A stretch of DNA of 64,000 nucleotides, from IMG/VR virus record IMGVR_UViG_3300006133_000325. One strand, 5' to 3'. Within the stretch, counting starts at the first letter, position 1; every line of letters begins with the position of its first letter. Made by a program: the position numbers and the translations under genes. Positions 19,870 to 41,538 of this stretch are shown here, one piece after another. The notes under the pieces were generated by a model. That model did no database searches. It had not been told where the DNA came from and worked only from the letters and a program-made list of their open reading frames with translations. The DNA is from a virus. Its lineage: Duplodnaviria > Caudoviricetes.

Positions 19870-20283
19870 TTATGACAATTCATATATTATTCTTCTGCCA
19901 CTGTAACTCTCCTCATCCCATCCTTTCTTCCATTCCTCATACACTTCCTTATTCACTGGTACTCTAATTCCTATTCGTAGTTGTGCATAATAGGAATTGT
20001 CATCCAAAAAGCCATCTTTATTGCCTACATACCAACCATCCAATAGCAACTCTTGAAAATGAGGTACATAGCATTTGCAGCATAACTCTTTTTGATTTCT
20101 TACCTTACATCCTTTTGTAGTATCTCTATCAGAACATTCAAGTATAAAAATTTCAGATAAGTCATATGGAGTTATTCGAGCAATTTTCAAAATATCATAT
20201 GCGAAGAATGTTCTCTCATGATGGCTCTGCTTTAGATGAAATTCTTGGTGTATATTCAATTCTTTGTCATCTCCTAATAACAT
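19870..20283 (-). CDS. Hypothetical phage protein
   Basis: ORF in co-directional operon. Confidence 0.55.
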   Translation of the reverse strand: MLLGDDKELNIHQEFHLKQSHHERTFFAYDILKIARITPYDLSEIFILECSDRDTTKGCKVRNQKELCCKCYVPHFQELLLDGWYVGNKDGFLDDNSYYAQLRIGIRVPVNKEVYEEWKKGWDEESYSGRRIIYELS

Positions 20284-20309
20284 CCAAGAAAGTTTATTTT
20301 ACAATAAAT

Positions 20310-20600
20310 CTACAAATCAAAAAGTTGAATATTCGGTACTTCAATAGAATTATTTTCTTTTTCCTCCTCTACAATTTCTATCCCGTATTTTTCTACCACT
20401 CCCTCTGGATATTCTCTCATCCAAAGTTTAGCGCTTAATGTATTACCACAATTTTTACAAGCGCAACTTTCACAATCTTCCCATTTACTAAAAATTCCAT
20501 TTTGACTTCTATACTGTTCCACCAAATCTAAGTTCCATTCAATTTCTGACACGTTCCCACAATTTCCACATATCCATTTTGACTTGTCTGTTAAAATCAC
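20310..20600 (-). CDS. Zn-ribbon protein
   Basis: CGNCG...CKNCG; overlaps stop of radical SAM gene. Confidence 0.6.
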   Translation of the reverse strand: MILTDKSKWICGNCGNVSEIEWNLDLVEQYRSQNGIFSKWEDCESCACKNCGNTLSAKLWMREYPEGVVEKYGIEIVEEEKENNSIEVPNIQLFDL

Positions 20601-21733
20601 TTTTTATCACCATCCGATCTATTTATTTTACTATAGTTCATAAATTTCATATCAAAATATCTATATGCCAGTTCTGGGATCTCTTTTTCAATCTGTTTCA
20701 GGTATCTCATTTCCGAACACTCTTTTTGATGTCTTGATTGCTGATACTCCACAAATTCTCTATAAGATTTTTTCTTAAAAGCACTGGGCTGATTACACCA
20801 CGCAGCAAGATTTATATATGTACCCCTATAAGGAGATTCCTCATATCGGTTAAATCTCATAATATATGGTAAACACTGATATTTCATAAGCAGTTCGATT
20901 CGTTTCCATAAATCCCATATATCTTGCCTCCAAAATTTATCATCCCATTTATCTTCTCTATCAAAACCGCAAAAAGTATAAAATTTTAAGACTTTATCTG
21001 TATACCTTCTCAATAGCTGCAGCTTATTTTCGATCAGTTCGTAATCAGCTACATTGTCAAATGCAAATATATAATCACCATCATATTTACTGTTAAAAAT
21101 CACGTTACATTTTTCGTCTGTAAGAAGCCGTTCATCCATGCCTTGCTTATATTGAAATGGTTTTCTTGTATTTTGCAATTCTCTAAATATTTCTTTCCAA
21201 TAAGGACTTCCGAGAATATTATCATCCAATAAACATATCTTCTTTCTTGAAGGATCGAGAAACTTACTTAATGGACTATGATAATCAACTTTTTTATAAT
21301 TACGATTCACGCAAAATTCACATTGTCTAAAGCAACCTCTCGTCGTGTAGCCAATCGAATAATCAAGATAATACTTAAAATCATTTCTCTTTTTGCCACT
21401 CTCAATTTGTCGATTTACCCATGTATCATATAAATGGTAATCTGGCATATAGTGTTCTACTTCGTCAGGAAGCTTTGGAGCTTTGTCATAGAAGAATCCT
21501 GTTCCGCCATATTTTACATTAGGAAGTTTCAAAACTTCTTCATCTATTGGTGTATCAGTAAATACTTTAGAAATGAATACTTTGTCATATGTTTCCAAAT
21601 CTTCATAATCCATTTTTAATTCAACATCAGTACCAAGTCCTTTGTAGTAACCGGATAGTTTCATACAAACCAGATTGGGGAACCTGTGCTTGTCTCTGCC
21701 TATTAGATCTGCATCTATAATTGCTATTCTCAA
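20597..21733 (-). CDS. Radical SAM protein
   Basis: TTRGCFRQCEFC; FPNL..MKLS, GGTG, LDDNIL. Confidence 0.85.
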   Translation of the reverse strand: MRIAIIDADLIGRDKHRFPNLVCMKLSGYYKGLGTDVELKMDYEDLETYDKVFISKVFTDTPIDEEVLKLPNVKYGGTGFFYDKAPKLPDEVEHYMPDYHLYDTWVNRQIESGKKRNDFKYYLDYSIGYTTRGCFRQCEFCVNRNYKKVDYHSPLSKFLDPSRKKICLLDDNILGSPYWKEIFRELQNTRKPFQYKQGMDERLLTDEKCNVIFNSKYDGDYIFAFDNVADYELIENKLQLLRRYTDKVLKFYTFCGFDREDKWDDKFWRQDIWDLWKRIELLMKYQCLPYIMRFNRYEESPYRGTYINLAAWCNQPSAFKKKSYREFVEYQQSRHQKECSEMRYLKQIEKEIPELAYRYFDMKFMNYSKINRSDGDKK

Positions 21734-21844
21734 TAATCAGCACCAAAGTGGTTGCAACCTTTAAAGCTAGCTACTAATTATCCTTTCTTAATCATCTTAT
21801 TGTTTTAAAAGTTCTTGACATATCATCGGAATGCTATGATATTA

Positions 21845-22396
21845 TTAAATAACTGTATACCAATAATCAAATATTTTTCTATAGCTATTTCCGCTCTTAA
21901 TATCCCCCTTATATTGCCTTACTCGACCATTAGCATACTTTTTATAATACTTATATCTATTTGGTTTACGCCTTCCTCTATGTATTCTTTTATAATAAAC
22001 AGTTCCTACAGGATCATCGAAATTATACTTACCATTTTCACCAACAGGTATAGCAAGTGGTGGATAACCACTATATGTTTGCGCCAAAAATTTAACATGT
22101 GCTTTATATTTGAAATCTCTTTCTCTTTTACTTCTTCTCTTTTGTTTAGAATAATTTTGTGAAATTTCAGATTGTATATATGCATCTTCACATCTGCCAA
22201 CTCTGAAGGTCTTACCGCCTACTTTATCACACCATAAGAATTTTTCAAATTCATCTGCAGCATCTTCTGGCTTTAAATCATGATATATGTCATTTGGCAT
22301 TCCCTTTTCTGTAGCAGTTATTTCATACCAGCTCATCATCTTCTCAAAATCTTCTTTTCCGTAAGGACATTCCCTACAATACATGATATCCACCAC
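21845..22396 (-). CDS. Hypothetical phage protein
   Basis: Long ORF, basic C-terminus. Confidence 0.65.
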   Translation of the reverse strand: MVDIMYCRECPYGKEDFEKMMSWYEITATEKGMPNDIYHDLKPEDAADEFEKFLWCDKVGGKTFRVGRCEDAYIQSEISQNYSKQKRRSKRERDFKYKAHVKFLAQTYSGYPPLAIPVGENGKYNFDDPVGTVYYKRIHRGRRKPNRYKYYKKYANGRVRQYKGDIKSGNSYRKIFDYWYTVI

Positions 22397-22406
22397 CTAT
22401 CCATTT

Positions 22407-23165
22407 TTATAAAATAATACTATTCCATTTCTTATTCTTCTCGTATTTCCATTGAATGCTTCCATAATAAAATCTTGTTTCTATATCTTCTACACGTTCC
22501 ATAGACAATATCCATTCACGATATTTTACCGCCTCTTCTTTTGTGGCATCATAGTATGCCTTCCACATACTGATCGTTTTCTCTATTTGCTCTACAGACC
22601 ACTCATAATCAGATAAGGAAGCTTGTCTCTTAAATTCTGCTATATACTTATCCCTCTCCTCTTTCGCCTCTTTATATGTAAAATAGACTTTATCTGGTCT
22701 AATGCTTACCCTATCTACATGATGCTGCCATATCGGATATTTTTTTACGATACAAAATCCATCTTTTGTAATATCTTCTTCTATATTCCCATGAAAAATT
22801 TGATTCGATTTTACTAATAATCCTGACTCATATGCCTTTTTAATAGAATCTGGATTATCTATGGAAACATGTAAACTATCGAACAACTTTACATCTTCAG
22901 AATTTGGCTTCTGTTCTAAATGGAATAATTTAGTGTTATATGTCCATCCTTTTGGAAGTTTTCTTCGCTTTTCTTCGTTTTTGAATACATCTATTGGTAT
23001 TCCATCAACATATCTTGTTTCTTTTGGTTCCAATAGATCAATACAAACCGCATCGGAAAATTGCTCGTCTACTCGTCCGTATTTTACAAAATATTCACAA
23101 CCGATTTTCTGACACCAGTAAACGATATCACCATGATTAAATCGCTTTTCAAAACCTTTTTGAAT
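22407..23165 (-). CDS. Hypothetical phage protein (probable ATT start at 23165)
   Basis: Frame open upstream of track start; GGAGGTG RBS precedes ATT ATT CAA. Confidence 0.65.
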   Translation of the reverse strand: MQKGFEKRFNHGDIVYWCQKIGCEYFVKYGRVDEQFSDAVCIDLLEPKETRYVDGIPIDVFKNEEKRRKLPKGWTYNTKLFHLEQKPNSEDVKLFDSLHVSIDNPDSIKKAYESGLLVKSNQIFHGNIEEDITKDGFCIVKKYPIWQHHVDRVSIRPDKVYFTYKEAKEERDKYIAEFKRQASLSDYEWSVEQIEKTISMWKAYYDATKEEAVKYREWILSMERVEDIETRFYYGSIQWKYEKNKKWNSIIL

Positions 23166-23201
23166 AATTTCACCTCCTCTAATGAAAACGATATTTCATA
23201 A

Positions 23202-24083
23202 CTAATAGTTTGTAATCAATACTTCTATATCCTGGCTCTTATCCTTCTTTTGGTAATTGCAATTGTTATAATTACCATTTAAATAATGTACGTGATATCT
23301 ATCCTTCCATTCTTTCAGCATTGGATTGTCATATTTTAAATTGTTACTTAGTGCAAACCTCCCGCCCCTAAGATTGATGCCATCCAGTAAATTTAATAAA
23401 TCTCTCTCATCATTCTTCGTCCAGCCACCGTTTTCATTATAAGAAGCAACAGAATTATAATACGGCGGATCACAATACACAAAGTCCCTGTTTTGAAAGA
23501 CGCAATCTCTAAAATCTTTATTATGAAACTCAATATCCTTCTTATGTAATTCTTCTACAAACTCTTTCAGTTTCTTCTGTAATGCTATATTGTAATCTCG
23601 TTTTCCGTATGGTATATTGAATTCTCCTTTTGAATTAAAGCGTATCTGATTATTAAAAGCACATGCAATCAACGTATAAAACTTTATCCAATTTGGATAC
23701 TTATTATAGTCTTCCCGTAATTTTAAGTATTTAGTTTTATTATAATTCCCTAGACCATTACTTGAATTACAACCATAACTTTTATATCCATTTATATCAG
23801 ATCTGCTTAGCCCATAGCTCGTAATTGTTTCAAGGATTTTCTCATGAATATCTTTGTAATCAATTTCATAAAAATGTTTTAATAAATCTACTACTTGGGT
23901 ACATATATCATTATATATAATATGTTCTGCTTTTACATTTACGCCTACATTAAATCCACCGCCAAACAAATCAATAAATGTATTCATATCATCTGGGAAG
24001 AGATGTAAAATCTCCCCCAGCAATTTATATTTCCCACCGACATAATTCAAGCAAGATTTTATGTATTTTTCACTCATTATCAA
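23202..24083 (-). CDS. dam: Dam-like N6-adenine DNA methyltransferase
   Basis: NYVGGK, DLFGGG, R.N.KGEFN.PYG, DPPY, EVLITNY. Confidence 0.88.
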   Translation of the reverse strand: MIMSEKYIKSCLNYVGGKYKLLGEILHLFPDDMNTFIDLFGGGFNVGVNVKAEHIIYNDICTQVVDLLKHFYEIDYKDIHEKILETITSYGLSRSDINGYKSYGCNSSNGLGNYNKTKYLKLREDYNKYPNWIKFYTLIACAFNNQIRFNSKGEFNIPYGKRDYNIALQKKLKEFVEELHKKDIEFHNKDFRDCVFQNRDFVYCDPPYYNSVASYNENGGWTKNDERDLLNLLDGINLRGGRFALSNNLKYDNPMLKEWKDRYHVHYLNGNYNNCNYQKKDKSQDIEVLITNY

Positions 24084-24084
24084 C

Positions 24085-24124
24085 TAGGAGTAAACGCGCA
24101 TTTAAATGGTATACCAAACCTCAT
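24085..24124 (-). promoter_or_regulatory. Two-palindrome leader element, copy 1
   Basis: ATGAGGTTT-GGTATACC-ATT-TAAATGCGCGTTTA-CTCCTA. Confidence 0.6.
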
Positions 24125-24164
24125 TTTCCTCCTTGTTTATTTTATAAATCGTTTTATTATTCCA

Positions 24165-25034
24165 TCAATAATTAGTTAGGCAATCTCTCAACATTTCATC
24201 TTTTGCTCTTTGATAAAACGTGAGGTCAATCTCAAATCCGTATGCACTTCTTCCCAATTCAACCGCTGCCCTCAAAGTCGTTCCAGACCCACAGCAGGGA
24301 TCTATGACAACATCTCCCTCATCTGTAAATATCTCAATCAACTTTTTAAGGACTGATACGGGTTTTTGTGCAGGATGAATTTTAGGTATTTCTTTTCCAT
24401 CTCGCTCCCAATTAAACCAATTAAAAACCATATGACCTGTACCTGGAATATTTTTACCATTTTCATCAATTTGCAATCCATTTCTAAACTTAGGCAATCT
24501 GTCTCGATATAAAAGCAGTGCATATTCCGTTGCTCCTACAACACGCATATTTGCCTTTAGGACTTGAGGGCTGTAATTTTTGATGAATACTAAAGGTATG
24601 TAGTGGATAAAGCCATGTTTTGTCGCCGCGCTAATGAGCGTCTGTATCTGCTCAAAGCTGCAAAACACAATCATACAGGGAGAATTGCTACTCCTGCCTC
24701 GTGGAACTGGTTTTGTATCGTCTTTCTTTAACATTTTGTGACAGAAATTAAACATTTCATAAAGATTAAAATTGAAATCCGAATTAAAAGCCGCTTTTTT
24801 TGCATATTTACTTTCACCATTTTTGTTATTTCCCTTTTCGTACCACATAGGATTACTACCATAAAAATTTGTTCCAATGTTATAAGGACAATCGCAAATT
24901 ACCAACTGCGCTCTCGGTATGTTATAGCCTTTAAAATTCTGAAAACTATCTCTGTAAATCTCGAATTTAATTTTCTTTTTATATTCCATTTTTATTAGGA
25001 GTAAATCATGATTTATCCCGCGCGGAAACCTCAT
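24165..25034 (-). CDS. N4/N6 DNA methyltransferase (beta class); alternative start at 24989
   Basis: DCPY (DPPY-like), HPAQKP, DPCCGSGTT, GFEID. Confidence 0.88.
   Translation of the reverse strand: MRFPRGINHDLLLIKMEYKKKIKFEIYRDSFQNFKGYNIPRAQLVICDCPYNIGTNFYGSNPMWYEKGNNKNGESKYAKKAAFNSDFNFNLYEMFNFCHKMLKKDDTKPVPRGRSSNSPCMIVFCSFEQIQTLISAATKHGFIHYIPLVFIKNYSPQVLKANMRVVGATEYALLLYRDRLPKFRNGLQIDENGKNIPGTGHMVFNWFNWERDGKEIPKIHPAQKPVSVLKKLIEIFTDEGDVVIDPCCGSGTTLRAAVELGRSAYGFEIDLTFYQRAKDEMLRDCLTNY
24996..25034 (-). promoter_or_regulatory. Two-palindrome leader element, copy 2
   Basis: ATGAGGTTT-CCGCGCGG-GA-TAAATCATGATTTA-CTCCTA. Confidence 0.6.
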
Positions 25035-25081
25035 TTCCTCCTTGATTTTCTATTATTTCTATCTCATTTATTCCCTTGTAA

Positions 25082-25409
25082 TTACTCAATTTTTACATTG
25101 ATAAACCCAAGAACTTCCTTCATTCCAAGACCACCATCTTCCCATGGTTTCATACAATATTCCCATAATTTCGGATGTGTTTGCTTTAGCCGTTGAAATC
25201 TGTTTGGTTCTTTCTCTAAATGACACCCATATCCGCAAAAGGAGTATCCTGTCCTACTACAAGCAGTTGTATAATACTTTCCAGACTTCAAGCCTGCATT
25301 GTTTTTAGATCTTCATTTGTATATGCTCTTTGCTCTGAATTATAATCAGAAGGAGATAAAATGTCAGAATCATTATACCCCCTCTGGTTATTTTGCGTTT
25401 ATTATCCAT
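25082..25409 (-). pseudogene. PAPS-reductase-family gene remnant (N-terminus joined to C-terminus)
   Basis: YTNEDLKTMQA*SLE abuts RTG..FCGYGCHLEKEPNRFQRLK.THPK. Confidence 0.65.
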
Positions 25410-25535
25410 TACCTTATTGACATACGGCGTGTAAACACTTAATAACCGATTACTTTATGTACTTCTCCTTTTTCTTTTTTTGTATTTTCAGATTGTACTT
25501 TTCTGATTTATGGTACGTCTGCCGTCTTGCTCAAA

Positions 25536-26334
25536 CTACTTCTTTATTTCTTTTTCTTTACTACAATACTCATCACTTTTTAAGTGCTGTATAACTCGAT
25601 TTTTACCAGCTTCAAAATATTTTTCATCTTTTTCAATACAAATCACCTTTCTGTTTAAGTTACTTCCTGCAATTGCACATGTCATACTTCCTGCAACAGA
25701 ATCTAATACAACATCTCCTTCATCTGTATATGTTTTTATAAAATACTCATAAATTTCTACTGGCTTTTGAGTTGGATGAATCTTTTTTGATTGATCTGCA
25801 TTACTAAAAATCTGCACATCCAATGGGTATCTATCTGTACTGTCATATAAGGTATTTCGTATTTCTCTGCCATAACAGCTATTCCCATCTGCCTCTTTGA
25901 CATATTTTGTTTTTGCAAATTTTCTTTTATGTCCATGTGTCATCTGTGGATGATAAATTGGTGGTCTTTTATAAAACACTTCTATATTTTCATGCGCCCG
26001 CATTGGCATTTTTTTAGCGTTTAGATGTCCTTTGGGGTGTGTTTTCTGCCATATCCATTCATACTTAAACATCTTAGGATTACTCATTACCAAAGCAGAC
26101 GTAAATGGTTGACTACTAAATAGTAAAATCGCCCCATTGTCCTTAATAATTCTATTGTATTGTTTCCACAAAGGTTCAAACGGAATAATAATATCCCATC
26201 TACATTGAGTGGTACTAACCATACGGAAGATCGGAAATAATGCAATCTATGGATTTATCTGGAATATAACTCATAACATTCAGACAATCTCCGCGAATCA
26301 GCATATTATCACGAAAATCCGTATTGCTCGGCAC
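25536..26334 (-). pseudogene. N4/N6 DNA methyltransferase frameshifted by a 4-nt insertion
   Basis: GDCL..M...SID.I.SDLPYG* then TTQCRWD...HPTQKP...GS in another frame. Confidence 0.8.
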
Positions 26335-26399
26335 CTCCTCTTCATTAAATATTTTATATATATCTGTCAAAGCAAAATCCTTTCTTTATTTACAGGTTA

Positions 26400-26543
26400 A
26401 GTTTTTCTTATGTTGTAATATTCTATCATATCCCTTTTTAAATATTTTTTCTCTTTCTTAATACAAATACCTTTTTTCCTGATTTCTTAATGGCTATTGA
26501 TGAGATCTAAACAATCACCACAAAATAATTCAATACCTTTCAT
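26400..26543 (-). pseudogene. DNA methyltransferase remnant (internal deletion)
   Basis: MKGIELFCGDCLDL joined to a degenerate C-terminal segment. Confidence 0.5.
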
Positions 26544-26556
26544 TTAATATCTTCTC

Positions 26557-27285
26557 CTATACAAGCCCTAATCTTCTTTCTGCTACATCAAAATATTTTT
26601 TATCAATTTCATATCCTAAGAAGTTTCTTCCTAGCTCTGAAGCTGCTACCAATGCAGAACCCGTACCGCAGAATGGATCGAAAACTACTTCTCCTTCTTT
26701 GCTGGAATTTAATATATAGAATTTTAATAGATCTACTGGTTTTTCACATGGATGTGTCTTGTTTCCTATAATATTAGAAAATTGATGAACAGTTTTACTT
26801 TTTCCTATGTTATTGATATATTTTGCTTTTCCTTTTCTTAAAAACAAAATATATTCACAATTCTTCATATAATATTGGGAACAGACACAATTATTCTTCT
26901 CCCATACCAATAGATTATGTAGTTTAAAACCTACTTTTTGCGATTCGTTTAACATATCTGTCAAATTCAAGACATTCGTAAAAATATAGGCATGGCTCCC
27001 ATTCTTTAGAACTCTATATACATCCGACATCCAATCTGATATTTTTACATTTTGGTAGGAAAATAACCTTCTGTTGCCACTCAACATCCCCTTCGGACGT
27101 TCCGAATTCCTACCATTATGATTTCCTCCTGTAATAATTCTATATGGAGGATCTGTAATCAGTAGGTCTACACTTTCTGATTCCATGTTTCTCATTGCTA
27201 CAATAGAATCATCATTTATGATTTTATTACATTCCATTCTTTCTTTAGGGGTAAAATATACTTTATTGGAATTCCAAATCCCCAC
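26557..27285 (-). CDS. N4/N6 DNA methyltransferase (beta class); alternative start at 27237
   Basis: TDPPY, HPCEKP, DPFCGTGS, GYEID. Confidence 0.9.
   Translation of the reverse strand: MGIWNSNKVYFTPKERMECNKIINDDSIVAMRNMESESVDLLITDPPYRIITGGNHNGRNSERPKGMLSGNRRLFSYQNVKISDWMSDVYRVLKNGSHAYIFTNVLNLTDMLNESQKVGFKLHNLLVWEKNNCVCSQYYMKNCEYILFLRKGKAKYINNIGKSKTVHQFSNIIGNKTHPCEKPVDLLKFYILNSSKEGEVVFDPFCGTGSALVAASELGRNFLGYEIDKKYFDVAERRLGLV
27246..27285 (-). promoter_or_regulatory. Two-palindrome leader element, copy 3
   Basis: GTGGGGATTT-GGAATTCC-AA-TAAAGTATATTTTA-CCCCTA. Confidence 0.6.
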
Positions 27286-27294
27286 TCCCTCTAT

Positions 27295-27720
27295 TTATTT
27301 ATCGCTACTACTAAACTCATCTAAATCGGTATTGATTTTTGTTTGATCAATATCCCTTAAAAGTATTTCATAATCAGTATCACATAATCCCAAATAATCT
27401 TGTAAACACCAAGGAGTATTTTTTGGAGTTAGCTCTATCCATTTGTTAATCTTTTCAATCCATTCTTCCTCTTTGTAATCTTCTAATACATGCGTCTCAT
27501 ATTTCGCTTGTAGCCAAGCCAATTCTGCAGCAATCGCCTTCTCATATGTTATATAGTGTCTTGGTAAGTCAGGAGAGGTATAATAATACCCTAATCCAGA
27601 AGAGCGATATACCCGTTCTTTTGCAATCCTACTAATATTTCTTTGATTTAACTTTTCTATATTTGTAATAATATCCCAGCTTTCTATATTTGGAATCACC
27701 TTGCATAGTAGGAAAACCAT
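27295..27720 (-). CDS. Hypothetical phage protein
   Basis: ORF in operon; start uncertain. Confidence 0.5.
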   Translation of the reverse strand: MVFLLCKVIPNIESWDIITNIEKLNQRNISRIAKERVYRSSGLGYYYTSPDLPRHYITYEKAIAAELAWLQAKYETHVLEDYKEEEWIEKINKWIELTPKNTPWCLQDYLGLCDTDYEILLRDIDQTKINTDLDEFSSSDK

Positions 27721-27839
27721 GCAAGGCTATGTTTATTATTCCTTGTTTTTACGATGCCTCCCAGCTATATAACCTCCAATAAAGGATGCAATCAAACAAA
27801 CACTAAGATACAATAAAAAACTCCCAATTTGTAACATAA

Positions 27840-28586
27840 TCATATCTTTCCACTCTTTCTCTTTGCCTTCATCTTTGATAGTTTCCGCTCAATCTCTTCT
27901 TCCTTCATACGTTTGTCTAATCTTTGTTGCTGAACATCCGAAGAATTCTCATAAGCCACTTTATGACCATCTGCCTCCTCTTTTGTCTTGCGAACACCAT
28001 CACGAACTTTTTCTAGCATTTTATCTTCTTCCTTGTTAGAAATCCCAGGTGTGGCTTGTAATGATTTCGTAACCTGTGCTGTTTCTAATGTAAGTACCGC
28101 ACTTTCTTTCTCAGATTTTAAATCAGCCAATTCATTAAAAAGCTGATCTACTGTTTCTTTTTGTAAAGAGGAATTTTCTCTTAATTCTTTTAATGCACTT
28201 TTGATAATATCGATTTTTTCCTCTATTTCCTGTTGGCGTTTTAAATATACCTTGGCTCCCTCATCATCTTCTTTTTCCATACAAGAATCAAGATTGATGC
28301 CTAATTGCATATTGCCTTTCTGTAAACTTCTTAACTGTTCTTCGTAGTTTTGAATCTTGCCAAGCATTTGTGTATAAACCGAATATGCCTGCCTATAATC
28401 TTCTTCCTTTTTAGTAATTGCAGTATTGTAATAAGCCTTTGCCCCTTCTGGAGTAGATGCATCTTTTGTTATTATCTCATCAGCAGTTCCAACCATCCTA
28501 AGGCGTAATCTTTTCCCGATTCTTGTGACGAATAAAAAGACAATTACCATAATCAATAATAGTATCATTGCTACAATTTTAGCCAT
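27840..28586 (-). CDS. Membrane-anchored PspA/IM30-like coiled-coil protein
   Basis: N-terminal TM helix, long coiled coil, L..MK tail. Confidence 0.6.
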   Translation of the reverse strand: MAKIVAMILLLIMVIVFLFVTRIGKRLRLRMVGTADEIITKDASTPEGAKAYYNTAITKKEEDYRQAYSVYTQMLGKIQNYEEQLRSLQKGNMQLGINLDSCMEKEDDEGAKVYLKRQQEIEEKIDIIKSALKELRENSSLQKETVDQLFNELADLKSEKESAVLTLETAQVTKSLQATPGISNKEEDKMLEKVRDGVRKTKEEADGHKVAYENSSDVQQQRLDKRMKEEEIERKLSKMKAKRKSGKI

Positions 28587-28588
28587 AC

Positions 28589-29227
28589 TTAATCTCTCCC
28601 CTCATCAATCGACAAACCAAAATTCTGAAATAATTCTGTCATTCCATTTCTGTACCCAGAGCCAAGTGCCTGGAATTTAAACCCATTGTTATAGCGATAT
28701 AATCTACCCATTTCTACAGCATTTAGATTTTCAAAATTTTCATTTTCTGATAAATCATATTTATAACACTCTCCGGATGGATTATCATAATCACAGATTG
28801 TCATAGTTGCATTGCTTACCATGCCAAAATTTTGCAAACGCTGTACTGCCCTAAAAATAGTTAAACATACTGTAAAATCAGTTCTGTTTGTCGGAAACTT
28901 ATCGGCATGAATGATAAAATACTCATCAAAGTGTTCCCTGTTAAAAGTAATCCCTTGTGAATCATCTCCTGTTCGATTATCTCCCGAATACTCGATCCAC
29001 GGATATGAGCTGCCATCACCATATGTATTGTAATTTACAATATCATTTGGATATGCTACTTTTCTATCAGAGTTTGTCAAGAAGCCATGAATATCAAAAT
29101 CTATATCTGCTTCTCCTGCATATCTGTTGGCATCCCAATTCACCCCAATAAATACATTTGCAATAGCGCTTCCATCTTCTTTTGTCATATTGATTTTTTG
29201 GTTCTTACTCATGTTAATTACTTCCAT
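28589..29227 (-). CDS. terD: TerD-family stress protein
   Basis: GVNWD, D.D, GDNRTG, QNFGMVSNA, YDLSE, FQALGSG. Confidence 0.9.
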   Translation of the reverse strand: MEVINMSKNQKINMTKEDGSAIANVFIGVNWDANRYAGEADIDFDIHGFLTNSDRKVAYPNDIVNYNTYGDGSSYPWIEYSGDNRTGDDSQGITFNREHFDEYFIIHADKFPTNRTDFTVCLTIFRAVQRLQNFGMVSNATMTICDYDNPSGECYKYDLSENENFENLNAVEMGRLYRYNNGFKFQALGSGYRNGMTELFQNFGLSIDEGRD

Positions 29228-29244
29228 AATTCCATTCCTCCATT

Positions 29245-30033
29245 TTATTTATTGTTGAGCCAATCCTTATATTGGCGCAAAATTTCAGTATATAACTCCT
29301 CATCACTCATACCATCCATATCGCAAACGGCAGTAAATCCTGTATTGTCATTTTTTCTTCCTTTCATATCATCCAAAGAACGTAAATAAGAAAAATTGTC
29401 ATTTCCGATACCAATAAACTGCACAAACATATTGTAATTGGAAAGTTCCTTAATGATTTCATTTGTTTCCGTCTTATCCCAATTATCTCCATCTGTAATA
29501 AAAATGATAAATGCCGGAATGCAACTTGGTTCTACGTCTTTATAGTACTTCACGATGTCTTTTAAAACTGGCGCATAATTTGTCCCGCCCATATTCATAC
29601 GGGATTTCATCATAACCTCCCTTACATAATTCTTATAGTTTTGAATTGTCACAGCTTCCACTCGTTTTTGACTATCTGAAAACAGCCAAGATTCTAATTC
29701 GCCGTTATCATCAAATCGTAAAGAGATTGGAAGCAGCCTGGTAATAGTATTCTGCACAGATCCATCTGCAAACAGCCCGGACATACTACCGGAATAGTCC
29801 ATTGCTAATGCCACTCTTGCAACATGTTTTGACATATCAATTTTTCCTGTTTTAGACATATCAATCAATACTTTATCTAAGTTTTTTGCCGACTTAGACA
29901 TATCAATCGTCCCTACCATTTTTTCAGTTGATTCCTTTTGCGGTATTTCTCTACTTTGTGCTGGAGTACCGGAAATATCCGGATACTCCTCTTTGTTCTT
30001 GCTAAAAAGATTCTTAAATAGTCCCATACTCAA
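29245..30033 (-). CDS. vWA domain protein (Ter-associated)
   Basis: MIDAS DYSGSM, GGTNYAP, FITDG, QFIGIG, DNTGF. Confidence 0.88.
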   Translation of the reverse strand: MSMGLFKNLFSKNKEEYPDISGTPAQSREIPQKESTEKMVGTIDMSKSAKNLDKVLIDMSKTGKIDMSKHVARVALAMDYSGSMSGLFADGSVQNTITRLLPISLRFDDNGELESWLFSDSQKRVEAVTIQNYKNYVREVMMKSRMNMGGTNYAPVLKDIVKYYKDVEPSCIPAFIIFITDGDNWDKTETNEIIKELSNYNMFVQFIGIGNDNFSYLRSLDDMKGRKNDNTGFTAVCDMDGMSDEELYTEILRQYKDWLNNK

Positions 30034-32662
30034 ACTCCTTTTCTTTTATATTATTTCTTTTTACAATCGCTTTTCTAATCAAATCTACTGGAATTACCAA
30101 AAGAGAAAGACCTATAACGATAAGCCATTGAATCAGGTTCAATGAAGTAAGTTTCAATAATTCTCCTAAAAACGTACAAGCAATCATAACTCCAACAAAG
30201 ATTCCAATTGCTATCTCAACAAATAATTTATTTTTTTTCAAACCATGAAATAGATTAAAATGTTCTGTCCGAATATTAAATCCATTAAATACAGCCATGA
30301 AGCAAAGTATCGTAAATCTAGCAGTCAAAAATTCCAAATCACTCGTAAAATATCCGTGTAGAGATGTAAACATCATAAGGAAATACACCCCGATAAAAGT
30401 ACATGCGGCAATTGCGATTCTTCCCTTTGCTCCTCTGATAAATAAGCCAGAGCCTTTTTTAATAGGAACCTCACATATATATTCTTTTTTAGAAGGTTCT
30501 CCGCCAAAGGAAAGAGAGTTTAAAGAATCCATAATAATATTTACGATCAATATTTGAACAGATGCTAAAACAGACATACCAGAAGCAAAAATTGGATACA
30601 AAATACCTAAAATCAATAATGAAATATTGATAGGAAGTTGGAACTCTAAAAACATCATAATGTTGTGCATAAATGTCCTGCCAAGTTCTACTGCCTTTAC
30701 AGTGGAAGCAAAATTATCATCTGTTAAAACAATATCACTTGCTTCTTTTGCAACATCGCTTCCGCTTTGCATACCAAAACCAACATCTGCTCTCTTTAAG
30801 GCAGGTGAATCATTTACTCCATCCCCTGTCATCGCAACCGATTTATCAATTTCCTGTGCCAATGTCACCAAACGCAATTTTGTATTTGGAGAACATCTTG
30901 AGATAACGCGAAGAGAAGGAAGAACCTCTTTTACTTCTTCATCCGTCATTGCTTCAAATTCGTCATTTGTCAATGCAACCTCTCCATCTTTATAAATACC
31001 ACATTCCTTTGCCACAGCTACGGCAGTTTCAATACAATCTCCTGTAATTTCGATTACTTGTATCCCTGCTTTTTGTGCTGTCTTTACTGCTTTTGGCACC
31101 TCTTCTCTTATCGGATCTACCACTCCTATAACCCCTAAAAGCGTCATTTCATGTGGCAGATGATTTTCTATCAATGCTTCATTTTTAACTGCCAGGGCAA
31201 TACACCTCATAGATTTCGAGGTCATTGTTTTAATTGTATCACTTAGATTGCTTTTCATTTCTTTTGTGAATTCAAATACCGTTCCATTCTCCTGCATGTG
31301 TTGCGAACAAAAATCAATAATTCTCTCTGGTGCGCCTTTATAATATGTAATGCCATTTTCTGCGGTAAAGGCAGAGTATTTATTTAAGCTACTAAATACT
31401 TGCTTGTCCTTCATTTTGTTGTTTTTTACAATTTCTGAGTAATTCGACGGATTTACAAGGCTTAATACTGCTCGGTCAATAGAATTACCTCCTATTATGC
31501 TTCCTTCTCTGTCAAAGGTTGCACTATTATTTAGTACTATATTTTTCTGAACAGTATCCCAAAGAGTAGAATTTTTTAACAACTCTTTTCCACTTCCATC
31601 TATCACTGTTTTAGGAGACATCATTCCTGTTGTTAAAGTTCCAGTTTTATCTGTACAAATGATATCAACATAGGCTAATTCTGGAATCTTATTTGGATTT
31701 TTGGCAAGAATATTGAATCTTTCCATAGTTTTTACATTTTGCTTTGTAACCAATTTCACAATCAAAGGAAGCCCTTCCGGAACTGCTGCTACGATAATGG
31801 TTAATGCCACAGAAAAGTTTTGTGCAAATTTTTGTGCCAAGCTAAATACATTATCTGAAAAATAATTCTCAAATCCTACCTTTAAAATTCCCGAAGTCAC
31901 CAATACGATAAATGTTAAAATAGCAGCCGCGGTTCCCCATTTTGATATAAAATCGCCTAAATTATCAAGTGCAATATTTAATGCTGTTTTAGGTGATTCC
32001 AGCGTTTGCATTTTTACCATTGTATCACCATTAATCGTATTCACTCCAACATCTGTTACTACCATCTTCCCTTCGCCTGACATTACTGTTGTACCAGCAA
32101 AGAGACAATTTTCATTTGTATAAGCATCGGTTGATGTCGTTTTCTTATGAATATATTCATCTACTGGCTTTTTCTTACACTCTTTTGTTTCTCCATTGAT
32201 AGCAGCATTATTAACCGAAATTTTTCCTTCTACTATATACCCATCTGCAAAAATTTCATTTCCTAATCCAAGGCATACAATATCTCCTACTACAATATCA
32301 TCTTTATTGATGGTTTCTAATTTCCCATCTCTAATCACATCGCAATACCTTACAGATGTTTTTTCTCTTAACTCAACTGCAGATTTTTGTACTCCAATCC
32401 CTGTTTTTACGGCAATTCCTGTCACGATTCCAAGCACAACCATAATCATAGCTGGCTCTGAAAATTCCATTACTCCAACAAAAGTTAGTCCAAATTGTAA
32501 AACAGCGATAGAAATAAGGATCATTGTAATTTTTTCACTTAATGCTTCCTTTGCAAACTCATACCATTTTTTTAATTTTGGCTCTGGTAGTTTATTGCTG
32601 CCGTATTTCTTTCTGCTTTTTATAACCTCATTTTGAGTTAAACCTTTCATTTTTTCCTCCAT
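30014..32662 (-). CDS. Ca2+-translocating P-type ATPase (PMCA-like)
   Basis: VPEGLPL, DKTGTLT, KGAPE, DP.R, MTGDGVNDSPALK; multiple TM helices. Confidence 0.92.
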   Translation of the reverse strand: MEEKMKGLTQNEVIKSRKKYGSNKLPEPKLKKWYEFAKEALSEKITMILISIAVLQFGLTFVGVMEFSEPAMIMVVLGIVTGIAVKTGIGVQKSAVELREKTSVRYCDVIRDGKLETINKDDIVVGDIVCLGLGNEIFADGYIVEGKISVNNAAINGETKECKKKPVDEYIHKKTTSTDAYTNENCLFAGTTVMSGEGKMVVTDVGVNTINGDTMVKMQTLESPKTALNIALDNLGDFISKWGTAAAILTFIVLVTSGILKVGFENYFSDNVFSLAQKFAQNFSVALTIIVAAVPEGLPLIVKLVTKQNVKTMERFNILAKNPNKIPELAYVDIICTDKTGTLTTGMMSPKTVIDGSGKELLKNSTLWDTVQKNIVLNNSATFDREGSIIGGNSIDRAVLSLVNPSNYSEIVKNNKMKDKQVFSSLNKYSAFTAENGITYYKGAPERIIDFCSQHMQENGTVFEFTKEMKSNLSDTIKTMTSKSMRCIALAVKNEALIENHLPHEMTLLGVIGVVDPIREEVPKAVKTAQKAGIQVIEITGDCIETAVAVAKECGIYKDGEVALTNDEFEAMTDEEVKEVLPSLRVISRCSPNTKLRLVTLAQEIDKSVAMTGDGVNDSPALKRADVGFGMQSGSDVAKEASDIVLTDDNFASTVKAVELGRTFMHNIMMFLEFQLPINISLLILGILYPIFASGMSVLASVQILIVNIIMDSLNSLSFGGEPSKKEYICEVPIKKGSGLFIRGAKGRIAIAACTFIGVYFLMMFTSLHGYFTSDLEFLTARFTILCFMAVFNGFNIRTEHFNLFHGLKKNKLFVEIAIGIFVGVMIACTFLGELLKLTSLNLIQWLIVIGLSLLVIPVDLIRKAIVKRNNIKEKEFEYGTI

Positions 32663-34537: not shown

Positions 34538-35219
34538 TTGTCTCCATATTTACTAATCCTGTTCGCTTCATATCTTTCCAATAACAGTACTCATCACCAT
34601 CCTGAATTACTATATATTTCTTATTGATAAGATATTCTTCAAGAGAGATATTCTCCTTTTTTAAAAAATTACTCAAAATATCTTCATCTACACATCCTGT
34701 ATATGGCTCTTCATAATGCCACCATCCACTTGCTTCCCAATATCCGACTGCAATCTCCCAATCATTTCCTTTTTGTAATAAATATTCTTTTAATTCTTCT
34801 TCAGTCTTTCCATGTATTTGATAATAATCGTTATTTTCATGTATTTTAGAATCTTTATTCGCAATTATACGATTACCCATCGGAAGTTTAATCTTCTTAA
34901 GACCTGGTATGTATTTCAGCGCGAGTGAAACAAGTTCTTTATAAACCTCATCATTGTATTCATGAACCAAAGATGCACAAGCATACAGCCATTTATCTGC
35001 AAATGTTCCTATAGCCCTAAATGGGCTTCTCCCAAACTCCATATCATGAATCCATGGTTTCCAAACACAAGACACCTCTCCTGTATCTGCATCCCTTTCT
35101 AGGTATATTCCATTTAGAATTTCTTCTTTAGTATATTTATCTTCTCGTTTCATAACCGTAAAAGAGTGCATACTACTTGAGTTTGTTTCAAATACACCTC
35201 TTCTAATTTGTGTTTTCAT
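34503..35219 (-). CDS. FETNSSS-motif phage protein
   Basis: IRRGVFETNSSSMHSF. Confidence 0.75.
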   Translation of the reverse strand: MKTQIRRGVFETNSSSMHSFTVMKREDKYTKEEILNGIYLERDADTGEVSCVWKPWIHDMEFGRSPFRAIGTFADKWLYACASLVHEYNDEVYKELVSLALKYIPGLKKIKLPMGNRIIANKDSKIHENNDYYQIHGKTEEELKEYLLQKGNDWEIAVGYWEASGWWHYEEPYTGCVDEDILSNFLKKENISLEEYLINKKYIVIQDGDEYCYWKDMKRTGLVNMETIDHEYPEEDWE

Positions 35220-37413
35220 ATTTTCCCCTTTCCTTATAAAAAAGCCTTCTTAACGTACAAATATCTCTTGGCATGCTACTCAAATCTTCTATATCATGTA
35301 AATTTCTAACCCAAGCATAAAATTCATTTGCTATTGGTGTGGTTAATCCAGAAGTTTTATAAATGTATCCGTTTTTAATTGTCTCATGAGCTACGCTTCT
35401 CATAAATTTCCAGAAATGATAATATGTCAGCTTTAGCTTGACCATATATCCAGAACTGTCTTCAATTACAAAACCTTCAATCTTGTTATTGTTGTATTCG
35501 TAGTCTTCCTGTAAAACATCATAATACCAATCAAAAAAATCTTGCCAATTTGCAATCTCAAACGCTTTTTCTTTGTGTTCTAATCCAAACTGCTCTGCAA
35601 TATGGCACATCTCACCATATTCATATTTAGCAAACTTCATTTGATTGTAAACAATATCTAATAATACCAACTTGTTTTCAGAATATTCGATAATATGCGG
35701 ATCGTTCTTCCTATCAACACATTCAAACACGAATGATACATTATGTTCTTTTATATAATTCTTCATTTTCAGTATATTTTCTTCTGATACTTTCTCATAC
35801 AACATATCTTTAAGCCAGCCAGCAAATTCACTGTCAATTGTAGACTTACTTGCAATAAATAAATCATCTTCATATTCGTTATAGCTGATAATTCCCAGAA
35901 AACCATTCTCTTTCACATATGCTGTTACAGGAAATTGTAGTTTATGCTGCAACATATCAAATTTCGTTTCAGAACGTTCATTGACATTAAAAAATTTTGT
36001 ATATGCTCTTGCTACTACTTTTCCTTTCATTGTGTCAAGATATAGTCCTCTTGCTTTCGTAGTCTGTTCGTCCCATATTTTATTGTAAAATACTTTAGGG
36101 GTAAAATTAAAAGATGAAATATTACCGAACTTCTTTTCTTGAATATACTTATTAGAACGCAATGCAATAATGACATCTGCTATCGTACTGCCTGTTACAG
36201 TTTGCTCTTTTTTGATTTCTGGTGTTTTAAATACCTCATTCTTTACTTCTATTGTATGAATCCCATTTTTATCAATCTGAACACACCTGAGATAACCTCC
36301 AAATTCTACTTGTCCTTCTAAATTGAATACCTTGTCATTTACTTGAATTGGCAATTGTTTCGTATTTCTATGTCCATGAACCTGGTAATAATTTTCTGGC
36401 GTAGTATTCAAATACGTCTCTGCCATTTTCTCAAAATCATTGTAATTGCCTACTCCATGAATCATTTGATCGGTTGCTACAAATGATAAATTGTTAGGAA
36501 CTGTACTGAGTCCAGCATGAGTAACCAAGAAAACTTTATCTTCATATTTATAATAAGCACACTGTCCAAATCTTCTATATAACTGTCTGATATCTTTTTT
36601 ATCAATTCCAGCCTCAATAAGTGCTGGTTTTGTTACTAACTCAAATTCTTTTGATTGGCTGAGACAATCATTAGCGTATAACCATAACCATTTTTCATGG
36701 TTCCCTTCTAACATCAATACATTTCTCTTATCTTTAATCGAAATAAGAAACTTTACAACTTCGGCATTTTCAATTCCTCGATCAATATAATCACCTGTAA
36801 AAATGAAAAACTCATTATCTTTCATTCCACCATTATCTGATAGATATTTCTGCAACACAGTATTGCAGCCATGGATATCTCCAATATGATGAATTTTTTC
36901 ATACTCTGACAAATCAATCATTTTCATCCAAATAGTATCTAATTCATCTGGTTTGATAATCTTTACTCCAGATGGAATCTTTTGCGTAGCAAATCTGGAA
37001 TACATTTTATCTATCACTTCTTCAGGTACTCTCTTTAATGGTACTCTGTTTGCATTTCTCCTTTTTACTTCTTCAATTGGAATATCTGTAAAATCAACAC
37101 AATAAATCCGATATCTATAGGTATCACACATTTGTTTATATCTGTTGATTTCTGATGTCTTGGAATTAGTTGCATCTACTACTGTAAATTCTCCTTTTTT
37201 CATCCTTGTTTCTAACAAGTTGAATAAAACCTTCCATGCAATGCCATCATTACTTTGACTGATTTCTTCCCTACCATCCAGCCGCATAATAGGACTCTGG
37301 CATAATAATCTGATATCATCTACTGATAATGTATAGGATTTTAACCCATTCTTTTCAATCCATGTGGATTTACCACATCCGGCAGAACCTCTTAATAAAA
37401 GTAAAATTCTCAT
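35203..37413 (-). CDS. Trifunctional RNA repair enzyme: polynucleotide kinase + metallophosphatase + Rnl1-like RNA ligase
   Basis: GSAGCGKST/DD.R/DATN; GDIHG, GDYIDRG, GNHE; ARGL, KFFN, KENG, FE, EGFV, KLK. Confidence 0.88.
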   Translation of the reverse strand: MRILLLLRGSAGCGKSTWIEKNGLKSYTLSVDDIRLLCQSPIMRLDGREEISQSNDGIAWKVLFNLLETRMKKGEFTVVDATNSKTSEINRYKQMCDTYRYRIYCVDFTDIPIEEVKRRNANRVPLKRVPEEVIDKMYSRFATQKIPSGVKIIKPDELDTIWMKMIDLSEYEKIHHIGDIHGCNTVLQKYLSDNGGMKDNEFFIFTGDYIDRGIENAEVVKFLISIKDKRNVLMLEGNHEKWLWLYANDCLSQSKEFELVTKPALIEAGIDKKDIRQLYRRFGQCAYYKYEDKVFLVTHAGLSTVPNNLSFVATDQMIHGVGNYNDFEKMAETYLNTTPENYYQVHGHRNTKQLPIQVNDKVFNLEGQVEFGGYLRCVQIDKNGIHTIEVKNEVFKTPEIKKEQTVTGSTIADVIIALRSNKYIQEKKFGNISSFNFTPKVFYNKIWDEQTTKARGLYLDTMKGKVVARAYTKFFNVNERSETKFDMLQHKLQFPVTAYVKENGFLGIISYNEYEDDLFIASKSTIDSEFAGWLKDMLYEKVSEENILKMKNYIKEHNVSFVFECVDRKNDPHIIEYSENKLVLLDIVYNQMKFAKYEYGEMCHIAEQFGLEHKEKAFEIANWQDFFDWYYDVLQEDYEYNNNKIEGFVIEDSSGYMVKLKLTYYHFWKFMRSVAHETIKNGYIYKTSGLTTPIANEFYAWVRNLHDIEDLSSMPRDICTLRRLFYKERGKYENTN

Positions 37414-37829
37414 TCTTCACTTACCGTCGTAAGTTGCACGTGCTTTTCACCTATAGGAACTTTTCATTTTATCCTTTCTTTATTTCTATTTTTAATATGC
37501 TTTCATTTCAAACCATTGCTCACCACAATAATTCTCTTTTTTAATAGCATCTATAATCTAGACCGTAATATATGTACATAATCGCTATTTTGTTCTCTTT
37601 AATTACTATCTATTTCATGTCTATTTTTAATTATTGTTCTCATTTTATTTCTCCATATATAATTTCCATAAAACTGTAAGATTGACTAATAAAATTATTG
37701 ACTTACTGTAGAATTCGTTATATTCTATATGTGTCCCAGGTGCAGAATACCAGACTTAGATCCTCATAACGAGTAGTGAGAAAAACCTATGGGACATTAT
37801 GCTCACTATTTCAAACGGAGGTGTTGCCT

Positions 37830-40448: not shown

Positions 40449-41145
40449 TTATATTCTGTTATCCTTCATTCTCTCCTTTGCTATATCAAACCATTTCTTT
40501 TCTTTTTCTATTCCAATAAAATTTCTTCCTAGCTTCAACGCTGCCACACCTGTTGTTCCTGTTCCCATTGTAAAATCTAAAATTGTATCACCTTCATTTG
40601 TCCAGATGGTTACACATCTTTCCATAAGTTGCAATGGTTTTTGCGTCGGATGCCCCATTCCTTTCTGGACTCCATGGAACAATAGGCGAAATATCATACC
40701 AAACATTTGTAAGCGCTCTACATTCTTGTCCGTTCTTCCTTCCCATTCCTCCTGTTTTCTTTGGAATATTAGAATAGATTTTTTGATATGTAGGAGTTTT
40801 TCCTTTGCAATACCACAAGATATCTTCTCTTGTAGAAACAAAATTCTTTTTCGAGCCACGTCCTTTAATTCTGTCCCATACAATCCAATTTTGCATAATA
40901 AATTTCTCATCCAACAAACATTTTGTATCGGCTACATTAGACCAACCCTGGAACAAAACTAAGTTTCCATTATCCTTTAATAAATTATAACATAGCTGTA
41001 TAGCTATTGGCATATTAAAACTATTATCCCATTCTGTGTAATTGATATTATAGGGTGGATCACAAATAATTGCTTCTACTTTCACTCCTTTTGCTATTAG
41101 TGATTTCATCACTTCAAAGCAATCTCCATTAAATAATTCCTGTAT
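40449..41145 (-). pseudogene. N4/N6 DNA methyltransferase with +1 frameshift in a G run
   Basis: NGDCF, DPPY in one frame; HPTQKP, DFTMGTGTT, GIEK in another; junction AAT GGGG CAT near 40653. Confidence 0.8.
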
Positions 41146-41538
41146 TTTATCTCCCTCCTAAAACTTTACACCTACACAATATCTTTCATTAGTACAGGTA
41201 TACTCATTATTATATTGGGCTTTATATAGATGCTCTGCCAGCAATGCACAACAATTTGTGATAATTCTATTGCCTTCTTTTTTATTCACATACTGCTCTA
41301 TAATAGCTCCTTTCTAATAATTTGCCTCATGCAACATCCCAATAGCCTTATCCATTTTCTTTTCTGAAATCATCAATCTCAATGTTTGAAGAAGATAAAT
41401 CAAATTCGACATCAACATCTGTTTCCTCTCCCTCTTTTACATCTTCCTCAACCTTCTATTTCTTCATCTGTTGTACCATCATCAAATTCCATAATTTCTT
41501 CATGACTGCACGTAGGATACCCAGTTCCTAAATAAAAT

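Follow-up and report, generated by a model that had tools for sequence, protein, structure and literature searches.

We analyzed the leaders of three DNA methyltransferase genes in a 64,000-nucleotide (nt) stretch of DNA from a virus (Duplodnaviria; Caudoviricetes; IMG/VR record IMGVR_UViG_3300006133_000325), hereafter the window. The genes lie on the minus strand and encode a D12-class (Dam-like) N6-adenine DNA methyltransferase (23202..24077; Pfam PF02086, E 1.7e-32) and two N6_N4 DNA methylases (24165..24989; Pfam PF01555, E 2.6e-25; and 26557..27237; PF01555, E 2.2e-36). Each is preceded by an intergenic element on the same strand (coding strand = minus), in which two palindromes are placed between a Shine–Dalgarno sequence (SD) and the start codon. 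Leader copy 1 (24075..24134), upstream of the D12-class gene, consists of the SD AAGGAGG (24134-24128), a second purine tract GAGG (24122-24119), palindrome 1 TGGTATACCA (24116-24107), palindrome 2 TAAATGCGCGTTTA (24104-24091; one U.G pair), a complement of the SD (anti-SD) CTCCTA (24090-24085), a 7-nt spacer and ATG (24077-24075). Copy 2 (24987..25043) has the SD AAGGAGG (25043-25037), GAGG (25032-25029), palindromes TTCCGCGCGGGA (25027-25016; one U.G pair) and TAAATCATGATTTA (25015-25002), the anti-SD CTCCTA (25001-24996), a 6-nt spacer and ATG (24989-24987). Copy 3 (27235..27291) has the SD GAGGGAG (27291-27285), GGGG (27283-27280), palindromes TTGGAATTCCAA (27277-27266) and TAAAGTATATTTTA (27265-27252; one G.U pair), the anti-SD CCCCTA (27251-27246), an 8-nt spacer and ATG (27237-27235).

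The common layout of these copies is a strong SD, 2-5 nt, GAGG or GGGG, UUU and a gapless 10-12-nt palindrome, followed by 0-2 nt, the 14-nt palindrome UAAA-N6-UUUA, C(U/C)CCUA, 6-8 A-rich nt and ATG. The module between SD and start codon is ~45 nt long, and in the window copies and their relatives the SD lies ~50-55 nt upstream of a start codon that has no adjoining SD. Re-reading of the sequence agreed with the initial annotation on the coordinates, letters, minus-strand orientation and downstream methyltransferase genes of the three ~40-nt elements and on the presence and self-complementarity of the palindromes; their length, given there as 8 nt, is really 10-12 and 14 nt, and the RTG placed after the SD is not kept across the family, in which AAG or TAG stands at that position in most members and ATG in others. 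The exact 3' motif of the leader has three sites in the 64 kb, all of them in these copies, and a covariance model built from relatives recovered copies 1, 2 and 3 with E values of 2.9e-13, 2.9e-16 and 7.1e-12, the next-best match in the window being at E 0.13. The phage of the window was encountered repeatedly in mouse gut metagenomes; the differences listed for copy 1 in its metagenome contigs fall in the SD-proximal junction, the inter-palindrome linker and the spacer, and none of those listed is in a palindrome. A promoter and terminator scan gave results no better than shuffles, and megablast against a phage collection gave no match.

A pattern scan of IMG/VR, in which the conserved flanks were fixed and both palindromes were left free, yielded at least 112 loci, nearly all true copies among the matches listed; after further scans the family comprised at least about 170 copies with 80 distinct sequences. 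The viral carriers are mostly gut phage contigs of ~55-60 kb and ~110-165 kb. In species-representative genomes 15 of 38 pattern matches were true copies, carried by Lachnospiraceae and other Clostridia (Roseburia sp. 1XD42-69, Lachnospiraceae bacterium A4, Robinsoniella peoriensis and several metagenome-assembled genomes (MAGs)), with one copy in a Treponema MAG. The covariance model detected the leader in 4 of 151 sampled Lachnospiraceae-family genomes, at no more than three copies per prophage, each on the coding strand directly upstream of a long open reading frame (ORF). All members of the family lie on the coding strand, with 6-9 nt, mostly 7, between CUCCUA and the start codon (ATG, TTG or GTG). 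The downstream genes are mutually non-homologous and nearly all encode DNA-modification enzymes: DNA methylases of the D12, N6_N4, C5, gamma-like and PHROG-757 groups, SNF2 helicase-methylase fusions, one Mom-family protein, four PAPS-reductase-domain proteins, a DruA-like protein and a radical SAM protein. All of the 80 closest viral-contig relatives of the copy-2 methylase gene have a two-palindrome leader of some type. In the ~58-kb gut phages the commonest gene behind the leader encodes a 203-aa double zinc-ribbon protein (e.g. L002:4805-5413), which is confined to that phage group, has no PHROG match and has no homolog in the window. No accompanying gene was common to all lineages, and between lineages only modification enzymes were shared; a search for a universal linked regulator gene across lineages likewise found none. 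Two coding explanations were rejected. An upstream ORF or leader peptide is not the conserved feature, since the position of its start after the SD reads ATG, AAG, TAG or GTG and its frame and stop differ among the window copies, and an N-terminal extension of the enzymes would be in frame in copies 2 and 3 only.

Alignment of 39 distinct leaders revealed that in both palindromes 99.8% of cells form standard pairs, including the adjacent central bases, none of which is unpaired. When the partners were slid by 1-3 columns this value was 24-44%, and none of 500 shuffles reached the observed one. Changes on both sides occurred in 7 of 11 pairs, the adjacent central bases were CG, GC, AU, UA or UG in every aligned sequence, and by our own count 14 of the 16 possible palindromic tetramers were found at the centres, with no particular loop favoured. 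From the aligned sequences, palindromy itself appears to be the constraint, and the homologs keep it, contrary to the loss of loop palindromy that the initial annotation had named as its refutation. We also examined a set of loci retrieved without regard to palindromes and sorted only by an SD-like run upstream; here the non-Watson–Crick cells were 13 G.U against 1 A.C, and the pattern matches without an SD, serving as an internal control, showed no palindromy at all. In a wider set 32 cells were G.U and none was a true A.C, since the one A.C call was traced to a mis-parsed 11-mer. Since G.U on the coding strand corresponds to A.C on the other strand and in double-stranded DNA, it is the sense strand that is under constraint, which favours a structure acting at the RNA level, as had been proposed from the G-U pairs of two window copies.

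The SD and the anti-SD change together. In the main type (type A) the SD is UAGGAG and the anti-SD CUCCUA, with UUUACUCCUA ending the module; type C has AAAGGAA and UUCCUUU, type D AAGGGAGCC and GGCUUCUU, and a further leader, L304, AAAGGAGC and GCUUCUUU. Relatives 78-86% identical to the window's second methylase are preceded by leader types that do not resemble the main one in sequence, and in every type the stretch following the second palindrome is complementary to that type's own SD across orthologous genes. The SD/anti-SD helix of type C was recovered by RNAalifold. This covariation across unrelated types upholds the earlier suggestion that the 3' CUCCU sequesters the SD. In the main type the clamp can extend to ~9-10 bp (e.g. 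AGGAGUAAA with UUUACUCCU), the extension using the 3' arm of palindrome 2. Alternatively, an inner helix can form between the second purine tract adjoining palindrome 1 (GAG, AGG or AGCC) and the first bases of the anti-SD. Because both helices use the anti-SD, SD/anti-SD pairing and palindrome 2 plus the inner helix are mutually exclusive. The change from GAG/CTC to GGG/CCC among the window copies, previously read as covariation of one closing stem, fits both registers equally and cannot by itself decide between them.

Further pairings were observed in particular groups. Type C leaders (L241 and about 60 related loci) have an extra outer helix, ACUAAAA / UUUUGGU, with the G.U variants ACUAGAA and AUUAAAA, which encloses the SD and the module and overlaps the anti-SD, adding another alternative pairing. 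Four loci in Lachnospiraceae prophages (L219-L222) form a sub-family with GAGAUUU ... UUUGCUC in place of GAGGUUU ... UUUACUC; wherever G is replaced by A ahead of palindrome 1, A is replaced by G behind palindrome 2, which may reflect a purine-purine contact or shared descent.

Like SD-sequestering leaders and riboswitch expression platforms (e.g. SAM-III / S-MK box), the element is small and near the start, its anti-SD pairs with the SD, and its alternative helices are exclusive; unlike them, it has an SD ~50 nt from the start, and its variable parts are gapless self-complementary segments without an Rfam match. The complement of the SD is thus kept when the SD changes, as in that class, but the SD does not lie 5-10 nt before the start, and with an SD so distant the leader fails the usual SD-sequestering geometry. 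Comparison with Rfam 15 gave no match at E<=1 in window positions 20000-31000 and none at E<=0.1 in six related loci, among which leader types A, A2, C and D are represented, the models without a match including SAM-II, SAM-V, SAM/SAH, SAM-III, SAM-VI and int-alpA (RF02996). No leader type could thus be assigned to a known Rfam family, in line with the initial annotation; int-alpA leaders also differ from the two-palindrome leader in fold and target genes.

Energy calculations showed a strong difference between folding within one leader and pairing between two. The isolated hairpins had computed energies of 0 to -2.1 kcal/mol, against -8.8 to -21.1 kcal/mol for self-duplexes of these segments. 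Modelled dimerization of whole leaders gave -10 to -17 kcal/mol against a shuffle mean of ~-6, corresponding to dissociation constants of 2e-12 to 1e-7 M, concentrations equivalent to 1-100 molecules per cell. A forced two-hairpin junction was 3-7.5 kcal/mol worse than other monomer folds, and the monomeric three-way junction with palindromic loops proposed earlier is disfavoured accordingly; pairing of the two hairpin loops within a leader was also rejected, since they are not mutually complementary. Because adjacent central bases cannot pair in one hairpin, a hairpin cannot explain the complementarity of the centres, and two RNA copies can. Pairing between two RNA copies is, on these models, the simplest physical reading, and homodimerization as such, the other part of that proposal, would be permitted by complementarity through both centres and by the predicted stability of the self-duplexes. 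Palindromic RNA dimer sites, including the retroviral dimer-linkage sites HIV-1 DIS and MoMuLV PAL1/PAL2, have been reviewed (PMC7357161). The leader resembles the retroviral sites in that its palindromes vary by lineage yet stay palindromic (the pairing of 99.8% of cells with two-sided changes in 7 of 11 pairs), that two of them stand side by side, and that weak hairpins contrast with stable duplexes; it differs in being part of a phage mRNA, with translation rather than packaging as the proposed output and with a dimer that is model-based only.

We therefore tentatively propose, at somewhat less than an even chance, a translational control leader that couples its SD clamp to the pairing of mRNA copies with each other. 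The element would act in cis as a 5' mRNA leader controlling translation initiation of phage DNA-modification genes. Its anti-SD would clamp the SD and the bases after it, and the two inserts between SD and anti-SD would be too weak as hairpins and stable as duplexes between two leaders. Because the 3' arm of palindrome 2 is common to the extended clamp, self-pairing and clamping would compete, so that the state of the clamp, and hence translation, would depend on how concentrated leader-bearing transcripts are locally. The leader would then set a dosage or threshold without a protein, for enzymes whose mis-expression is harmful. That dimers form in the cell and affect translation is what we infer from sequence and models. 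For the direction of the effect, loosening of the clamp (activation) at high transcript level is slightly favoured over repression, because a stabilized palindrome 2 would remove the clamp extension, because the inner helix would be promoted, leaving the SD free and nearer the start codon, and because prophage copies would stay silent.

A wider scenario, to which we give about one chance in three, is that counter-defence mRNAs sense their own concentration. Transcripts would pair via both segments into a two-fold symmetric dimer that resets the clamp, so that stray transcripts in a lysogen would stay silent and abundant lytic ones would be translated; with the opposite sign, the dimer would cap expression when genome copies are numerous. 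In this scenario host restriction would drive palindrome swapping between near-identical phages. An RNA that must stay palindromic inevitably gives the DNA restriction-type sites, and host restriction enzymes acting on such RNA-imposed sites can be offered, as speculation, as one cause of palindrome exchange. Symmetric RNA-only assemblies have been solved for the large ornate bacterial RNAs ROOL, GOLLD and OLE (PMC12286853). If self-pairing holds, the leader would be a protein-free, concentration-sensing translational switch based on mRNA-mRNA pairing, for which we found no description in the literature on bacterial or phage messages.

Several results weigh against this proposal. Even with the module looped out, the SD would be 12-15 nt from the start codon, compared with the usual ~5-9 nt. 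The fold z-scores of the single leaders were unremarkable (-1.2, -1.9 and +0.8). Nearest-neighbour models leave the SD paired in monomer and dimer alike, so that the energies are compatible with an effect of either sign. The distinct leader sequences are not independent evolutionary events, and the second palindrome of type C mostly has a non-complementary GA centre, which could form a duplex only via tandem G.A pairs. Finally, the two leaders of one genome often share a palindrome, so that mixed pairs would form if dimers form. Many ~58-kb phages have both a type A and a type C leader. Where the type A core was GTGCGCAC, 8 of 16 genomes repeated this 10-nt self-complementary core in their type C leader, and where it was GGTCGACC, the type C leader had GTGCGCAC in 9 of 22. 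The cores thus appear to assort independently, which indicates that identity between the leaders of one genome is not avoided and that palindromes are exchanged quickly between close relatives. The copy-specific pairing suggested by the initial annotation from the differing palindromes of the window is not supported, given the 8 of 16 related phage genomes in which two different leaders have the same core.

The most credible alternative, doubtful as we consider it, is a monomeric SD-clamp leader read by a trans factor, either a ligand such as S-adenosylmethionine (SAM) or S-adenosylhomocysteine (SAH), or an RNA-binding protein of phage or host that acts like Com. The contacts of this factor would be the conserved junction bases GAGGUUU, UAAA/UUUA and CUCCUA, with the palindromes as no more than short scaffolding stems. 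Conservation of ~25 junction-proximal bases while the stems vary is consistent with such a reader, as are the mutually exclusive pairings, which are typical of riboswitch expression platforms. It leaves unexplained, however, the complementarity of adjacent central bases and the weakness of the hairpins, and its two-hairpin junction is the fold that scored worse than other monomer folds. For a SAM ligand, many target enzymes use SAM, but neither a SAM-riboswitch model nor any other Rfam model matches. Mom, PAPS reductase and the RNA-repair enzyme described below are not known to be SAM-dependent, which counts against this ligand.

For a protein reader, the 203-aa double zinc-ribbon protein follows the commonest leader variant; against it, no accompanying gene is common to all lineages and no zinc-ribbon homolog was found in the window. 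Phage Mu com-mom provides a related case, in which a harmful DNA-modification gene is under translational leader control, and one member of the present family precedes a Mom-family gene. In Mu, however, a single hairpin is opened by the Com zinc-finger protein, and here no Com homolog or conserved partner gene was found. Hairpins in the 5' untranslated regions of phage anti-defence operons are bound by Aca1 and Aca2, and these motifs limit translation of phage counter-defence genes, also at high genome copy number (PMC13551039). Those are sequence-specific hairpins bound by a co-encoded helix-turn-helix protein, in contrast to the hypervariable stems and the lack of a linked regulator here.

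Two divergent leaders in the window, designated type B, have no CUCCUA. The first (21733..21790, minus strand) consists of AAAGGA, AGCTAGCT (21772-21765), ttaaa, GGTTGCAACC (21759-21750), ~14 nt and TTG at 21733. It precedes a gene for a 378-aa radical SAM domain protein (20597..21733, minus strand; PHROG 9298, E 1.6e-45), whose ortholog in locus L028 has a canonical leader. The second (37411..37482, minus strand) consists of AAAGGAT, AAGTT, CCTATAGG (37457-37450), tgaaaa, GCACGTGC (37443-37436), AACTT, 17 nt and ATG at 37413. The gene behind it (35203..37413, minus strand) encodes a 736-aa RNA-repair protein, a fusion of polynucleotide kinase-phosphatase with a T4 Rnl1-type RNA ligase (Pfam AAA_33, Metallophos and RNA_lig_T4_1, the last at E 3.1e-43). 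In two other phages the orthologous gene starts behind a plain AAAGGA-N-ATG ribosome-binding site and lacks the ~49-nt insert, so the ~49 nt in the window look like an insertion between SD and start codon. Judged from these sequences, the two-palindrome module appears to be optional and modular. A further palindrome pair at 18940-18921 (minus strand), with the 8-nt, GC-containing TTCCGGAA and GCTCGAGC 4 nt apart inside a 104-aa ORF, was probably due to chance, because shuffles give 0.43 such pairs per window.

The plain ribosome-binding site at the position of the window's insert could also be accommodated by a constitutive split ribosome-binding site, in which a compact module holds a distant SD near the start codon at a low fixed rate; we consider this unlikely. 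In the split ribosome-binding sites of T4 gene 38 and gene 25, a structured insert separates the SD from the start codon. The leader shares that arrangement, its start codons have no adjoining SD, and in every type the palindromes are directly bordered by a short helix (GAG/CUC, AGG/CCU, AGCC/GGCU or AAGTT/AACTT). Its insert is larger than those of T4, however, and contains an anti-SD; the looped-out spacing of 12-15 nt is longer than usual, which is also a difficulty for the bridging of a distant SD to the start codon that the initial annotation had offered as an alternative and that may still apply, and the inner helix of 3-5 bp has mismatches in L035, L129, L191 and L221. The stronger SD/anti-SD helix would hide the SD, and the palindrome centres would be left unexplained.

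That the palindromes are symmetric DNA sites, either operators of a dimeric regulator or methylase or restriction targets sensing the modification state, is very unlikely. Gapless palindromes of 8-14 bp look like type II sites and operators, the downstream genes modify DNA, and the palindromes change fast between close relatives. Double-stranded DNA recognition does not, however, predict the 13:1 excess of G.U over A.C on the coding strand, nor a fixed distance to the start codon and an invariable coding-strand orientation. Different palindromes precede near-identical zinc-ribbon genes and likewise methylases 78-86% identical to the window's gene, and the hexamers of the window's leaders are not avoided elsewhere in its genome (GAATTC 21, TCATGA 27 and GTATAC 7 copies). 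The palindromes were rejected on these two grounds both as the enzymes' own targets and as avoided restriction sites. As to a controller-protein (C-protein) operator, no linked C-protein gene was found, and the palindromes are hypervariable and not a conserved C-box. A selfish miniature palindromic insertion without a regulatory role, suggested by presence/absence differences between orthologs, several sequence types and inverted-repeat ends (UAGGAG ... CUCCUA), is the least likely explanation, since the element stands only between SD and start, in coding orientation, and precedes DNA-modification genes almost exclusively (in the 4 of 151 Lachnospiraceae-family genomes, each time just upstream of a long ORF), no target-site duplication was seen and its constraints are of the RNA type.

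A search of the literature found no description of the two-palindrome leader. A catalogue of 10,006 viral RNA candidates mentions four that lie upstream of N6-adenine methylase genes (PMC10690425), and the leader could be identical with an uncharacterized candidate of that catalogue. One control element links a functional class of genes in abundant gut phages and Lachnospiraceae prophages, and could serve to mark counter-defence genes in metagenomic phage contigs. The leaders are ~60 nt long and are carried by cultured strains, which makes them amenable to experiment, and they may offer a compact part for dose-dependent control in Firmicutes.

In addition to the leader-bearing genes, the window contains other methylase sequences. 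A fourth N6_N4 methylase gene (25536-26370, minus strand), located between the leader-bearing methylases and without a two-palindrome leader, is broken by a frameshift: its frame reads ...SDLPYG, then TAG, and resumes one base out of frame (STTQCRWDIIIP...). A remnant resembling a methylase N-terminus (MKGIELFCGDCLDLINSH, stop) lies between this pseudogene and the third leader-bearing gene (26490-26543, minus strand). Another N6_N4-type methylase is encoded at 40449-41160 (minus strand) in two overlapping frames, 40594-41112 and 40449-40910; its conserved N-terminus starts at ATA, 7 nt after AGGAGGG, with an ordinary ribosome-binding site and no module. In the whole window GGCC was seen 4 times against ~53 expected and GATC 90 times against ~190, a scarcity that suggests restriction-site avoidance; both are absent from the leader palindromes of this phage. 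In relatives of the window's phage (contigs from three metagenome runs), 89 nt inside the second methylase gene (24271-24361) are swapped for 1079 other letters, which may represent the exchange of a target-recognition part or the insertion of an element.

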